NCBI GenBank assembly: GCA_045535075.1
Contig: JAZSKX010000014.1
Coordinates: 211,411-275,410, forward strand
Reading direction: 5' to 3'
DNA: 64,000 nt
Source: Candidatus Spyradenecus sp.
GTDB lineage: Bacteria; Verrucomicrobiota; Verrucomicrobiia; Opitutales; UBA953
In this document: in pieces, positions 93-62,646 of the stretch
Layout: every line of letters begins with the position of its first letter
Numbering within the stretch: the first letter of the stretch is position 1
Position numbers and translations under genes: made by a program
The notes under the pieces: model-generated
The model's database searches: none
Seen by the model: the letters and a program-made list of their open reading frames with translations, nothing else
Told to the model about the DNA's origin: nothing

Positions 93-863
93 ATGAAAGC
101 TTTAATCACCGGCGCAAGCGGCGGAATCGGTCGCGAAATCGCAAAAGTGCTCGCAGAGCGCGGCTGTGAGTTGATTTTGTGTTCCCGCGATAAAGCGGCT
201 TTGACCGCGCTTGCGGAAGAACTTCCCGTGCCGTGCAAAGTGGTCGCGACGGATTTATCGGTCGAAGAAAATTGCAGGAAGCTTTATGAGCAAACTCGCA
301 ACGATAATGTGGAAATTCTTGTCAATAACGCCGGATTCGGAGTTTTCGGGGCGTTTGAAAAAACGGATTTGGATGCAGAGTTGGAGCTGATTAATCTGAA
401 CATCCGTGCAGTGCATGTGCTGACGAAGCTTTTTCTGAAAGACTTTCGAAAGCGCTCTGGGGCGTGTTATATCTTAAACGTTTCTTCAATGGCGGGATTT
501 TTTGCCGGACCGCTTTTTTCATCTTACTACGCTTCCAAAAATTACGTGACGCGTCTTTCGGAAGGTATCGCTGAAGAATTGCGGCGGGAACGCGCAAATG
601 TGTCGCTTTCGCTTTTGTGCCCGGGACCGGTTCCGACCGGATTCGGCAAGCGCGCCGGCGTCTCTTTCGGACTCTCGGGAACGCCCGTGCGGTTCGTCGC
701 CGAATCCGCCGTTCGAGGAATGTTTGCCCGCAAGCTTTATATCGTTCCCGGTGTATCCAATAAATTATTACGTTGCCTCGGGGCTGTGTTTACTTCCCGA
801 TTCTGTGCCCGCATCGTTTATTCCCTGCAAAGCGCAAAGAAAATTGTCCGCGGGAACTCTTAG
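93..863 (+). CDS. Short-chain dehydrogenase/reductase (SDR)
   Basis: TGASGGIG Rossmann motif, NNAG, catalytic YYASK (YxxxK). Confidence 0.92.
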   Translation: MKALITGASGGIGREIAKVLAERGCELILCSRDKAALTALAEELPVPCKVVATDLSVEENCRKLYEQTRNDNVEILVNNAGFGVFGAFEKTDLDAELELINLNIRAVHVLTKLFLKDFRKRSGACYILNVSSMAGFFAGPLFSSYYASKNYVTRLSEGIAEELRRERANVSLSLLCPGPVPTGFGKRAGVSFGLSGTPVRFVAESAVRGMFARKLYIVPGVSNKLLRCLGAVFTSRFCARIVYSLQSAKKIVRGNS

Positions 864-941
864 TGCCGTTTATCTGTTTGCGCCCGGCGTTCCCGCGTTT
901 TGTTGCCGTTTATAATGTGACAAAAATGGGACACTAAAAAC

Positions 942-958
942 TTGGCACGGGCTTTGCA
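942..958 (+). promoter_or_regulatory. Sigma-54 (-24/-12) type promoter upstream of dnaK
   Basis: TTGGCACGGGCTTTGCA matches TGGCAC-N5-TTGC, with GG at 944-945 and GC at 956-957. An imperfect inverted repeat, TGTGACA-AAAA-TGGGACA, lies at 916-933. Confidence 0.65.
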
Positions 959-973
959 TTAAACGAAAGCACT

Positions 974-2899
974 ATGAGTAAAATTCTTGGAATCGACCTT
1001 GGTACCACCAATTCTTGCATGGCTGTCATGGAAGGCGGCGAACCCGTCGTCATCCCGAACAGCGAAGGCGCGCGCACGACGCCTTCGGTAGTCGCGTTTG
1101 CGAAAAACGGCGAACGCCTCGTCGGCCAGGCGGCAAAACGCCAAGCCGTTACGAACCCGAAAAACACGATCTTTTCGGCAAAACGCCTGATCGGCCGTAA
1201 ATTTGCGGAAGTTCAGGAAGAAATCAAATCGTTCCCGTTCACCGTCGTTGAAGGTAAAAACGGCGACGCCGCAATTCAGGCGGAAGTGAACGGCAAAACG
1301 GAAACTTTCGCGCCGGAACAAATCTCCGCGATGGTGCTCGCAAAAATGAAAGCTGACGCCGAAGCCTATCTCGGCGAAAAAATCACGCAGGCGGTCATCA
1401 CCGTTCCCGCGTATTTTAACGACGCTCAACGCCAAGCCACAAAGGACGCGGGAACGATCGCAGGGCTCGAAGTGCTCCGCATCATCAACGAACCGACCGC
1501 CGCTTCCCTCGCTTACGGTTTGGATAAAAAATCCGACGAAAAAATCGCGGTTTACGACCTCGGCGGCGGAACGTATGACGTTTCCATTCTCGAAATCGGC
1601 GACGGCGTTTTTGAAGTCAAAGCCACCAACGGCGACACTCAACTCGGCGGCGATAATTTCGACGAACGCATCATTTCCTGGCTCGTTGACGGCTTCAAAG
1701 CCGAAAACGGAATCGACCTCCGCAACGACCCGATCGCGCTCCAACGCCTGAAAGAAGAAGCGGAAAAAGCCAAAATCGCGCTTTCGTCCACCAATTCCAC
1801 CGACATCAATCTGCCCTTCATCACGGCGGACGCAACCGGCCCGAAGCACTTGAACGTCCAGCTCACGCGCGCCAAGCTCGAACAGCTTTGCGACGACTTG
1901 CTCGAACGCACCCGCATTCCGTTTGAAAAATGCTTGCGCGACGCCGAGCTTTCCATGAGCGAAATTAACGAGCTCGTTCTCGTCGGCGGTATGACGCGTA
2001 TGCCGAAAGTCGTCGAAGTCGCCCGCAGCCTCGCGGGAAAAGAACCGCACAAGGGCGTGAACCCGGACGAAGTCGTCGCTATCGGCGCTTCCATTCAGGG
2101 CGGCGTGCTCAAGGGTGATGTTCGCGACGTGCTTCTGCTCGACGTTACGCCGCTCACGCTTTCCATCGAAACCGCCGGCGGTGTTTCCACGCCGATGATT
2201 GAACGCAACTCGACGATTCCGACGAAAAAATCCCAGATTTTCTCGACCTACGCGGACAACCAGACCGCCGTCGACATCCGCGTTCTCCAAGGCGAACGCC
2301 CGATGGCGAAGGACAACAAGCAACTCGGGCTTTTCCGCCTCGACGGAATCAATCCCGCGCCGCGCGGCACGCCGCAAATCGAAGTTACCTTCGACATCGA
2401 CGCGAACGGTATTTTGCACGTTTCCGCCATCGACAAAGGCACCGGCAAGAGCCAGGAAATCTCCATCACGGGATCGTCCGGCTTGAGCAAGGACGAAGTT
2501 GAAAAACTCCGCAAGGAAGCCGAACTTCACGCCGCGGAAGACAAAGTCCTTCGCGAAACCGCCGAAGCGCGCAACAAGCTCGACGCCTACGTTTTCCAAA
2601 TCGAAAAGCAAATCAAGGAAGCCGGAGACAAAGTTCCCGCCGAACAAAAAGCGGAAATGGACAAGCTCCTCGCCGACGCGAAGAAAGTGCTCGAAGACAA
2701 ATCTTCCACGCTCGACGCGATTAACGAACAGGTTTCCAAAATCGAAAGCATCATGCAGGCGGCTCAGCAGTTCGCCCAGCAGCAACAGCAAGCCGGCGCG
2801 GGAACGCCTCCGCCGCCCCCGCAGAATGACGCTTCATCCGCCAAGAAAGGCGGCAACGGCGCCGTCGATGCCGACTTCGAAGTCGTCGACGATAAGTAA
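974..2899 (+). CDS. dnaK: Molecular chaperone DnaK (Hsp70)
   Basis: [23 protein letters not shown] and NPDEVVA motifs; C-terminal VDADFEVVD. Confidence 0.99.
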
Positions 2900-60444: not shown

Positions 60445-60479
60445 GATGTTAAATAAAAGAAGGATTGTTGTTTGTTAAA

Positions 60480-61676
60480 TTATTTTTGATGACGCGCACA
60501 GAATTTCGCGAGGCGCTCGACGCCTTTTTGAATTGTTTCGTCCGCCGTCGCGTAGCTGAGGCGAATATAGCCTTCGGCCCCGAATGCCGAGCCGGGAACA
60601 ACGGCGACAAGTTCTTCTTCAAGGAGCTTTTCCGCAAATTCCGATGAACTCATGCCGAATGAGGCAATGTTCGGGAAAAGGTAAAACGCACCTTGCGAGC
60701 GGTAGCAGGAAATTCCCGGAATCGCGTTGAGTGCATCGCAAAGCATTTTGCGCCGGCGGTCAAAATGGACGAGCATTTCCGAGACGGCTTGCTTTGCGAG
60801 TTCCGGTTGTTCGTAAACGGCAAGTGCTCCGTATTGGGCGAAAGTCGTGCAGTTCGACGACATCTGGCTTTGCAACTTTGCAACCGCTCCCGCAATTGCC
60901 TTCGGCGCGACCGTGATGCCGAGACGCCAACCCGTCATTGCGTACGCTTTGGCAAACCCGGATGCGGTAATGACGCAACGTGCCGCTTCATCGGAGAACG
61001 TTGCGGGCGATGCCGCTTCCGCTCCGTCATAAGTCAGCGAAGAATAAATTTCGTCCGAAAGAATGTAAATTCCGGCTTCAACTGCGACTCGGACAATTGC
61101 TTCAAGCTCCGAACGCGTATAAACCGCTCCCGTCGGGTTAGACGGTGAAGTGAGAATAAAGAGTTTTGTTTTCGGCGTGATTGCCGCGCGAAGCTGTTCC
61201 GCAGAAATCTTAAATCCCGTGGAATCGTCCGCCTGAAGGATTTTGACGTTCCCGCCGGCGAGCTTAACCATTTCGGGATAGCTTACCCAGTACGGAGCAG
61301 GAATGATGACTTCATCGCCGGGGCTGATGAGCGCAAGAATCGAAAGATAACACGACATTTTCCCGCCCGGGCTGAGCACAACGCAGGTTTCGTCGATATT
61401 CTTGAAGCCTTTTGCCGTGTAGTCTGCTGCAATCGCCTTGCGAAGCGGAAGAATGCCCGGTGTCGGAACGTAGCGGGTTTTCCCTTCGCAGAGCGCTTTG
61501 GCTGCCGCTTCGCAGATGAATTTCGGGGTGTCAAAATCCGGTTCGCCGGCTCCGAATCCGCAGACATCTTTTCCGGCAGCTTTCAGAGCTTTGGCTTTGG
61601 CATCGACGGCTAATGTCGGGGAAGGCGCAATGTTCTGTGCCCAGGTTGAAAGAGGAGACGTAGTATCGTGGCTCAT
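60480..61676 (-). CDS. PLP-dependent aminotransferase class I/II (aspartate aminotransferase-like)
   Basis: [47 protein letters not shown]. Confidence 0.95.
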
Positions 61677-61836
61677 TGTAAAAAGTGTGAAAGATTCCGA
61701 AGATACGTCTTTTCTTGCGGGAACGCGAAACAAAAAGTTGCTCGGGAGCTGAAACGGGAAGTGATGGCACTTATTGAAATGTAATATAAGAACACCTGTT
61801 GCTCTATCCCACACGAATTACAATTAAGATTCTGTT

Positions 61837-62646
61837 TTATCTCAATGATGTCGCTTTCCCGTCGGAGTCGTAGCTTGGATTAAACGCAAAGAATGCAGAG
61901 GATTCGGAAGGAAGAACTTCCGAATATTGATTCAAGTTGTTCGCTGAATATGTGCTTTGCGTTCCCGCTTCGGAGGAAGTTTCGCGGTTACCGATGTTGT
62001 CAAACGCGTAGGCGTAATTCGCGTTCCCGAACGTCGCGGAGGTCAGTTCCGAACGCGGATTGTAGCCGAAGGTGTCATTCTGCGTCGTGCCGTTGCGCGA
62101 AGTCGTGCGTGTGAGCGGACGCCCGAGCGCGTCATAAGTATAGTTTCGCAAAACAACATCCGTTCCCGCTCCGCGATAAATCCGCATTCCCGCAACCAAA
62201 TCCCGCTTGTCCTCGTAAGTGTGCACAAGCGTCAGATTGCTCGGGCACGCCAGCGATTCCAAAAGATTTGTCCCCGAAAGGTAATTATAAGTAAACGTCT
62301 TTTCCGCGCCGCCGTGAACAAAACACGCCGTCGCAAGCCGCCCCGTCGCTTCCGCGTAAGTCGTTCCCGTGGTTTGCTGAACGCTTCCGTTCTTCGCGTA
62401 AACGTAGCCCGTGCCGCGCCCGAACGCGTCGCGAAGCTCCGTCACGGCGTGCGCGATTGCGTCGCCCGTGAGCGTTTCGCTTTCGACTTCGTTGTAATTA
62501 TTATAAACATACACACGCGTTCCCGCCGAGACTTCCCGCGTCCAAGTCGTCGAAGCCAAGCGATTAAACGCATCGTAGGCATAATCAAGCTGCCCTTCGT
62601 CCGGATAAATCTTGCTGAGCAAAAGCCCCGTCTCGTACTTTTTCAA
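61837..62646 (-). pseudogene. Orphan RHS/YD-repeat fragment
   Basis: YDAFNRL, YTYDALGR, YAFDNIGNR, NNLNQY, YDSDG, then a stop; no RHS core and no convincing start. Confidence 0.8.

Follow-up and report, generated by a model that had tools for sequence, protein, structure and literature searches.

To our knowledge, sequence-specific DNA uptake is known from just two proteobacterial families. In one of them, the Pasteurellaceae, the uptake signal sequence (USS) has the core AAGTGCGGT or ACAAGCGGT and is accompanied by AT-rich flanks. Other short genomic words include the cyanobacterial highly iterated palindrome HIP1 (GCGATCGC), which is linked to methyltransferases, and Chi of E. coli (GCTGGTGG), which, like the FtsK-orienting polar sequences (KOPS), is strongly co-oriented with replication. 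The second family is the Neisseriaceae, where the minor pilin ComP reads the DNA uptake sequence (DUS), GCCGTCTGAA or one of its dialects (PMC3630211; PMC3868556). In this study, we followed a short dispersed word, GCGGGAAC on one strand and GTTCCCGC on the other, through a 64-kb stretch of DNA from Candidatus Spyradenecus sp. (Verrucomicrobiota), hereafter the window (G000:C1:211411-275410), through its source genome G000 (1.95 Mb, 1,949,087 bases; 18 contigs; 52% GC) and through related genomes. The word is considered as a candidate DNA uptake sequence.

Abundance and core of the word

The window contains 130 exact matches to GCGGGAAC/GTTCCCGC (68 forward and 62 reverse), dispersed over positions 181..62526 on both strands, inside genes in all frames and also between genes. 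In 100 dinucleotide-preserving shuffles of the window, GCGGGAAC occurred on average 4.30 times (sd 1.89; maximum 9). A preliminary description had proposed the motif GCGGGAAC(G) as an uptake sequence. Its count of 26 perfect copies in 1-10575 was reproduced exactly (14 forward and 12 reverse), every one of its example coordinates appears in the exact-match list, and the G with which copies were said usually to continue follows 104 of the 130 copies in the window and 3244 of 4032 genome-wide. The enrichment was thus real, but the core was misplaced: the commonest and most over-represented 8-mer of G000 is CGGGAACG, that is, GCGGGAAC moved by one base.

Across G000, CGGGAACG is present in 5159 copies (2527 forward and 2632 reverse), compared with 183 expected from an order-1 Markov model, 28x below the observed number, and 587 from an order-3 model. 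The density is about 2.65 copies per kb, or one per ~378 bases, and is fairly even, with a mean of 26.5 per 10 kb. Uptake sequences are recognized by a density of at least about one copy per kb, far above the expectation from composition and codon usage, and CGGGAACG has such a density. The window holds 156 copies of this core (89 on the plus and 67 on the minus strand) and 199 of the 7-mer CGGGAAC; GCCTAACGA occurs only 9 times in G000.

A logo built over all copies reads y-y-[G/A]-CGGGAACG-c, with information of about zero outside positions -3 to +9. Since the flanks carry no information, CGGGAACG is a free-standing short word and not the core of a repetitive extragenic palindromic element (REP) or a miniature inverted-repeat transposable element (MITE); such elements have a longer conserved unit and lie mainly between genes, whereas 4198 of the 5159 copies are coding. 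Core positions differ in their tolerance of change. Single mismatches at positions 1, 2, 3, and 5 mostly give variants no commoner than expected (the ratio is 1.8x for CAGGAACG); those at positions 6-8 give variants enriched by up to 10x (CGGGAACA 10x, CGGGAGCG 6x, CGGGAACT 6x).

Placement, null models, and strand symmetry

Placement and shuffling were based on 1374 genes called from open reading frames and codon usage, covering 84.5% of the genome. The copies within genes (4198; 2.55 per kb) occupy all six frames, with 2527 in sense and 1671 in antisense, and the remaining 961 lie outside genes at 3.17 per kb, so that the location inside genes in several frames reported earlier extends to every frame and to intergenic DNA. 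The commonest readings are Ala/Thr-Gly-Thr, Arg-Glu-Arg, and x-Gly-Asn-x in sense and x-Val-Pro-Ala in antisense.

The prevalence of a few peptide contexts, Ala/Thr-Gly-Thr in sense and Val-Pro-Ala in antisense, would fit an excess arising as a by-product of amino-acid or codon usage, or from a dispersed mobile repeat. Shuffling synonymous codons with proteins kept constant (n=10) gave 465 +- 17 copies of CGGGAACG and permuting codons (n=10) gave 156 +- 16; the higher expectation of the former indicates that protein composition contributes a little. However, 4196 copies were observed in genes, 9x and 27x these expectations. As the excess outlasts both the synonymous-codon and the codon-permutation shuffle, it belongs to the DNA and not to the proteins or codon usage, and the enrichment that the preliminary description had put up for a codon-preserving null persists. 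Copies are also denser outside genes, their flanks lack conservation, and outgroup orthologues use other codons for the same residues. The usage-artefact or mobile-repeat explanation is refuted, and we give it practically no weight.

Leading and lagging strands were assigned from local GC skew with the word masked. CGGGAACG was found 2461 times in the leading and 1972 times in the lagging orientation (fraction 0.555), and 442:387 between genes. Copies within genes are more often in sense where the gene is co-oriented with replication (fraction 0.640) than where it is head-on (0.556; chi-square p 6e-7). The word is thus non-palindromic with nearly equal orientations and without strong polarity, as uptake sequences are. 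The absence of strand bias claimed in the preliminary description holds for copy numbers (68/62 in the window, 2527/2632 genome-wide) and for strong, Chi-like polarity, but gives way to a weak leading excess of 0.555.

That excess, together with the G-richness of the word and the presence of RecC in G000, from which a Chi sequence should exist, could be read as the mark of a Chi- or KOPS-like signal with a polar role in recombination or segregation. The polarity is far too weak for such a signal, and one copy per 378 bases is far above the density of Chi. The role is better filled by another 8-mer, GCAGGGCG, which runs 149:19 compared with 55:45 for CGGGAACG, and a Chi- or KOPS-type function for the latter is very improbable. 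GCAGGGCG, with 149 leading and 19 lagging copies (fraction 0.89), leads the polar 8-mers of G000 and is in its own right a candidate KOPS-like or Chi-like word of this genome.

Terminator hairpins

Pairs of the form GTTCCCG..CGGGAAC less than 20 nt apart number 164 in G000, far more than any of the three alternative arrangements (26, 34, and 44); between genes and within 45 nt, there are 178 such pairs and 29 in the opposite configuration. The typical layout is an A-run, GCGTTCCCG, a loop, CGGGAACGC, and a T-run. Using a simple hairpin-plus-T-run finder restricted to intergenic DNA, 538 terminator-like hairpins were collected, of which 267 (49.6%) hold the word and 204 carry it in both arms. 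Kingsford (2007) places uptake words, also in a preferred configuration, in 55% of the terminators of Neisseria and in 17-29% of those of Pasteurellaceae (PMC1852404), and a prokaryote-wide terminator survey from 2026 again reports such words, and for these two families only (PMC13020248). The use of inverted pairs as terminator stems, expected of uptake sequences, is therefore found for CGGGAACG too.

Five word pairs of the window fold at -20 to -24 kcal/mol and have T tails. The pair at 2994..3019, with an A-run before and a T-run after it (dG -24.0), separates the convergent genes for DnaK and an iron-dependent alcohol dehydrogenase and resembles an intrinsic terminator acting in both directions. 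Between 24 and 44 kb, word pairs form the two strongest terminator-like hairpins. The strongest, at 29944..29983, has 18 pairs and lies 3' of a sodium:solute symporter gene; the word pair at 35907..35940 forms a terminator-like hairpin of 14 pairs with a T tail. An inverted pair 40 bases beyond the first of these, at 30023..30049, is flanked by A/T runs between convergent genes (dG -21.5), and another with a T tail (57348..57374; dG -20.2) lies 3' of a PEP-CTERM protein gene (55226-57307). The window also has an intergenic tandem repeat at 24253-24710, with a 104-base unit in 4.4 copies (92% matches), and within each unit there is a small hairpin followed by a T-rich tail.

Word-poor and acquired DNA

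The preliminary description held that the word saturates host-like DNA, and its distribution bears this out. A low-GC island of the window (10600..17000, 6.4 kb; GC 0.441 at 12001-16000), carrying two radical-SAM genes and genes for a Chlam_PMP repeat protein and a PEP-CTERM/LamG protein, holds just 2 copies of CGGGAACG. The island is missing from G002 and G013, where its neighbours on either side, the DHH and DUF2339 genes, lie next to each other with ~0.5 kb between them; it is thus either an insertion in G000 or a deletion in G002/G013.

Word-poor regions also occur at host-like GC. Three successive 10-kb windows of C16 (190-220 kb, 53-54% GC) hold 4, 9, and 4 copies compared with the mean of 26.5, and coincide with a Mu-like prophage (G000:C16:188000-218000) encoding Mu-type transposition proteins (transposase and MuB-like), a head protease, a large terminase, and a virion protein. 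The other poorest 10-kb windows are C8:20-30 kb, a ribosomal-protein operon, and the surroundings of a low-GC helicase gene without copies. The first of these overlaps a second Mu-like region (G000:C8:22000-33000), with the same two transposition genes as the C16 prophage, host-like GC, and few words. The helicase gene (G000:C5:229513-234342; 43% GC, zero copies) encodes a 1609-aa DEAD-box/UvrD-type helicase fusion and probably belongs to a defence island of foreign origin. The scarcity in recently acquired DNA expected of an uptake sequence is thus seen in the two Mu-like regions and in the island absent from G002/G013.

Distribution among relatives

We surveyed 41 genomes, 19 of the genus (G000 included) and 22 from other genera of the same family or order. 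GCGGGAACG was counted 3060-5581 times in 15 of the 19 genus genomes (motif-rich); the remaining genomes of the genus, G001, G002, G013, and G014 (motif-poor), had 340-760 copies, while all 22 genomes of other genera had background counts of 0-196; a reversed control word gave 0-197 copies across all 41. The word is therefore raised in 19/19 genus genomes and at background in 22/22 others, a lineage restriction typical of uptake sequences.

No word of comparable excess was detected in 100-kb samples of four sister genera (G020, G021, G022, and G026) or in ~40 DnaK neighbourhoods of other taxa (at least 10 kb each), and no dialects of CGGGAACG were seen within the genus or in the four sister genera sampled. 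Two candidate dialects were rejected. In the sister-genus genome G019, CGGGTACG appeared 63 times in 100 kb, compared with 4.7 expected, but its 163 copies genome-wide equal the control level, so that the excess is a local repeat. In G014, the 12-mer CACCACCAACCC occurs in clustered arrays with a spacing of ~17-18 nt, often at contig ends, which rules it out as a dialect. Its arrays include L006:2164-2600, L009:12-70, and L123:143-640; it reaches ~0.85 per kb over the 150 kb sampled and is almost lacking in G000. As a separate observation, CGGGTACG is nearly absent (0-10 copies, compared with 40-390 of its reversed control) from several motif-rich genomes and also from G029 and G030. This scarcity may reflect avoidance of GTAC, perhaps by restriction systems, an explanation favoured because these two word-less genomes likewise lack CGGGTACG.

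Maintenance of the word in place and its loss

To measure the conservation of individual copies, the sequence obtained from each of eight genus genomes was aligned as best-hit blocks to the complete G000 genome (window-based synteny with G016, G007, and G010 left only DnaK alignable). Perfect conservation was then scored for each G000 copy and, as controls, for 8-mers of matching frame at a distance of 12-36 nt. Among motif-rich species, G000 copies were conserved at 0.74 in G016 (controls 0.45), 0.70 in G007 (0.35), 0.71 in G010 (0.33), and 0.68 in G003 (0.15). Among motif-poor species, the values were 0.146 in G002 (controls 0.164), 0.216 in G001 (0.166), 0.349 in G013 (0.175), and 0.056 in G014 (0.066). 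Motif-rich species hold the word in place far above same-frame controls, which constitutes active maintenance, whereas in the four motif-poor species it decays at about the background rate.

Of the copies that motif-poor genomes retain, most (0.39-0.89) coincide with a copy in G000. Decayed states are mostly synonymous, with the commonest changes at positions 5, 6, 2, 7, and 8, which in the reading xCG-GGA-ACG fall largely on third codon positions; because these states are diverse, no replacement word has arisen in the motif-poor species. The DnaK gene of the window (974..2899, plus strand; 5 core copies) illustrates this. In a codon alignment of 22 genomes, three of its word sites are common to nearly the whole genus; the motif-poor species have mutated versions of the word at shared sites, and the five aligned outgroups have synonymous non-word codons at the three sites, except G026 at one.

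In the DnaK tree, G001, G002, and G013 form a clade (100/100) inside the motif-rich group (99/99), and G014 stands on its own branch. Taken with the conservation data, this topology suggests that the word is ancestral in the genus and that the four motif-poor species represent, apparently, two separate losses of maintenance. The tree counts as weak support, since it is built from a single gene and DnaK belongs to the near-identical blocks (see below). A stronger argument for loss is that the distant G003 shares 68% of G000 sites and the closer G001 22%.

Copies conserved so far above background, at a fairly even density of 26.5 per 10 kb, might each be a binding site of an abundant chromosomal protein (nucleoid-associated or condensin-loading), kept by selection on chromosome structure. 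We know of no such protein that needs ~5000 sites, most of them within genes and costly in terms of codon choice. The sites are moreover dispensable, having decayed at a neutral rate in four species, and neither co-option into terminators nor depletion in prophages is predicted. A structural role is accordingly quite improbable.

Competence and pilus machinery

The competence genes that the preliminary description had suggested looking for are largely in place. ComEC is encoded in 41/41 genomes and DprA in 40/41, and a PilB-PilT-PilB ATPase cluster is found in 19/19 genus genomes. In G000, this cluster comprises PilB-like, PilT-like, PilB-like, and PilC genes with RecD2 nearby; a PilM-like gene lies upstream of a gene for a 984-aa TPR-secretin, and five prepilin-like genes were identified, one of them at C16:99151-99864. 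The window itself encodes RecJ and, at 47690..50987 on the minus strand, four consecutive prepilin-type (N_methyl) genes (345, 246, 249, and 228 aa) in an operon adjoining RuvX. These four are candidate minor pilins of the type IV pilus/competence machine and possible carriers of a DNA receptor. Prepilins evolve fast: identity to G003, which keeps the same word, is 52-56%, compared with 95% for DnaK.

Loss of a competence gene was tried as the cause of word decay and rejected. Since the tested genes, prepilins included, are intact in the motif-poor genomes (the window prepilins are 81-90% identical there), no gene loss explains the lost maintenance. A second secretin (~780-880 aa) was seen in G001, G002, G013, G014, G004, G012, and G018, and not in G000 or the other genus genomes. 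A third PilB/GspE-like ATPase, lacking in G000, was seen in the same genomes except G012 (82% complete), and that of G014 adjoins the prepilin operon. Neither tracks the word, as both are also present in the motif-rich G004 and G018 (the secretin also in G012).

A different driver, for which intact competence genes in motif-poor genomes are the expected outcome, would be a genome-wide, sequence-specific fixation bias without DNA uptake, in which a repair or gene-conversion enzyme, or some other reader, restores near-cognate sites. Restoration of this type has been proposed for HIP1 and for Vsr-type repair. It would predict the abundance of the word, its independence of frame, restriction to the genus, maintenance, lineage loss, and depletion in new DNA. 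However, neither of two methyltransferase families is conserved with the word: PF00145 is found in 10/19 and PF01555 in 16/19 genus genomes, G004 and G006 lack both, and G000 lacks PF01555. Variants one C>T or G>A change away from the word stand at 0.97-10x expectation, showing no Vsr-like erasure of transitions, and the logic of hemimethylation does not apply to a non-palindromic word. The methyltransferase and variant data argue against a Vsr-like or HIP1-like methylase-linked origin, and a methyltransferase-linked drive was rejected on the two families searched (N6_Mtase, D12, Eco57I-like, and Vsr were not searched). Fixation bias in the broader sense, the leading alternative to an uptake function, we regard as unlikely, while giving it real weight.

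Exchange between species

Comparison of G000 with its relatives in 300-nt windows revealed a mosaic. Windows at least 95% identical to G000 made up 46/127 in G016, 40/116 in G007, and 19/90 in G010, the rest being 65-85% identical. There were none among 499 windows of G001, G002, and G013 taken together, though their median identity is the same (0.79-0.81), and none in G003 (0/136) or G014 (0/169). The near-identical blocks are whole genes, for aconitase, a 636-aa protein, DnaK, a CBM9 protein, HtpG, PurH, GltX, and Asd, spread over six G000 contigs, while their neighbours are diverged (PrmA, for example, 77%). Blocks of 96-99% identity include window positions 935-3033 (DnaK), G000:C9:70063-73014, C2:28124-30144, C16:263649-265664, and C11:48724-50616. 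The gene order of G000 around DnaK matches that of the motif-poor clade and not that of G016, G007, or G010. When one block was searched for on equal terms, identity was 96-97% in G016/G007/G010, 90% in G011/G017, 86-87% in G001/G013, and 77-78% in G014/G008/G009.

Recent homologous exchange of gene-sized segments among word-bearing species is suggested by this pattern, and such exchange would fit the proposed role of the word in uptake. Word density in the near-identical blocks is 2.93 per kb compared with 2.65 genome-wide, and so there is no clear enrichment of the word within them.

A candidate uptake sequence

At the sequence level, the word shows every property of uptake sequences that was testable. 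We propose that CGGGAACG, in the extended form y-y-R-CGGGAACG-c, is a genus-specific, independently evolved DNA uptake sequence, functionally similar to DUS and USS, and assign this a probability of roughly 55%. A surface or periplasmic component of the type IV pilus-secretin-ComEC-DprA machine would bind word-bearing double-stranded DNA, and fragments from the own genus, which carry the word, would be taken up and recombined more often. The resulting bias would act as a molecular drive, fixing the word at every site where the encoded protein permits it, chiefly by way of synonymous codons such as xCG-GGA-ACG. The same drive would keep existing copies in place while newly arrived DNA stays word-poor, and inverted pairs might later have been co-opted as terminator stems.

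Several observations weigh against this proposal. Canonical ComEA was not found with PF12836 or TIGR00426 (the sole strong HHH_3 match is a 787-aa Tex protein), a ComF-like match scored 80.5 bits, under the cut-off of 233.55, and no reader protein was found among the machinery genes examined. ComEC, DprA, the secretin, PilB/PilT, and the four window prepilins are intact in G001, G002, G013, and G014, where the word decays. A density of 2.65 per kb is several times that of DUS or USS, and a small but significant leading-strand excess remains beyond gene orientation. The mosaic comes from one neighbourhood, shared by G016, G007, and G010, and could stem from a shared habitat, another route of transfer, or assembly artefacts; there is also an exception to it, a 1.1-kb block with 97% identity to G001 at a type I restriction locus. 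The self-specific transformation signal of the preliminary description is partly supported, with symmetry, genus restriction, terminators, prophage depletion, and maintenance in its favour, and with the shifted core, the missing ComEA, and the absence of a reader among the genes examined holding it back.

A fuller version of the uptake proposal would make this a third uptake-sequence system, non-proteobacterial, with a denser word of 8 bases and a reader distinct from known ComP and independent of a canonical ComEA, switched off in four species in apparently two events and accompanied by whole-gene exchange skewed to word-bearers. Taken as a whole, this combination is attractive but tentative, and we would not quite commit ourselves to it.

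A literature search returned nothing on uptake sequences or natural transformation in the Verrucomicrobiota, nor on CGGGAACG in a relevant context. If uptake is confirmed, a gut-type genus of the Verrucomicrobiota would provide the first case of self-recognition by a DNA word outside the Proteobacteria. It would mean that self-biased transformation evolved repeatedly and that it shapes the genomes of uncultured gut bacteria, and addition of the word to donor DNA would offer a practical handle for genetic tractability of the phylum. With 15 sampled species maintaining the word and 4 having stopped, the genus presents a natural experiment without counterpart in the classical systems, and the contrast between motif-rich and motif-poor genomes should allow the gene for the reader to be found by comparison. 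If the word proves not to be an uptake signal, it would be a clean case of a genome-wide DNA reader and still worth pursuing.

Comparison with known systems

Among the described genomic words, Chi and KOPS resemble CGGGAACG in being G-rich, over-represented octamers, and RecC is present in G000. CGGGAACG differs from them in running 55:45 and in being much denser; strong co-orientation, their defining feature, is found here for GCAGGGCG (0.89) and not for CGGGAACG (0.555). HIP1 is likewise an octamer of comparable density, independent of frame and specific to its lineage. CGGGAACG, in contrast, is non-palindromic, and no methyltransferase of the two families tested (PF00145 and PF01555) is conserved with it, so that the pairing of palindrome and cognate methyltransferase which marks HIP1-type words is lacking.

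The similarity to uptake sequences is closer. As with USS, most copies of CGGGAACG are coding and occupy several frames, the core positions differ in tolerance, homologous copies are conserved between related species, and the word is used in terminators. It does not belong to the USS family: the core is different and unrelated, the flanks are without information and have no AT-rich segment, and two lineages here have stopped maintaining the word.

CGGGAACG is also no member of the DUS family, being neither GCCGTCTGAA nor one of the dialects with a CTG core. It is unrelated to DUS in sequence and found in another phylum, its core has 8 bases compared with 10-12, its density is several times higher, no dialects were seen, and ComEA was not found. 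In its general properties, however, the word resembles DUS, as a short, non-palindromic word of very high copy number, present in both orientations and inside genes, restricted to one lineage, and accompanied by a type IV pilus, a secretin, ComEC, and DprA. Inverted pairs of the word serve as terminator stems in about the same proportion, ~50% here compared with the 55% given for Neisseria in the terminator study (PMC1852404).

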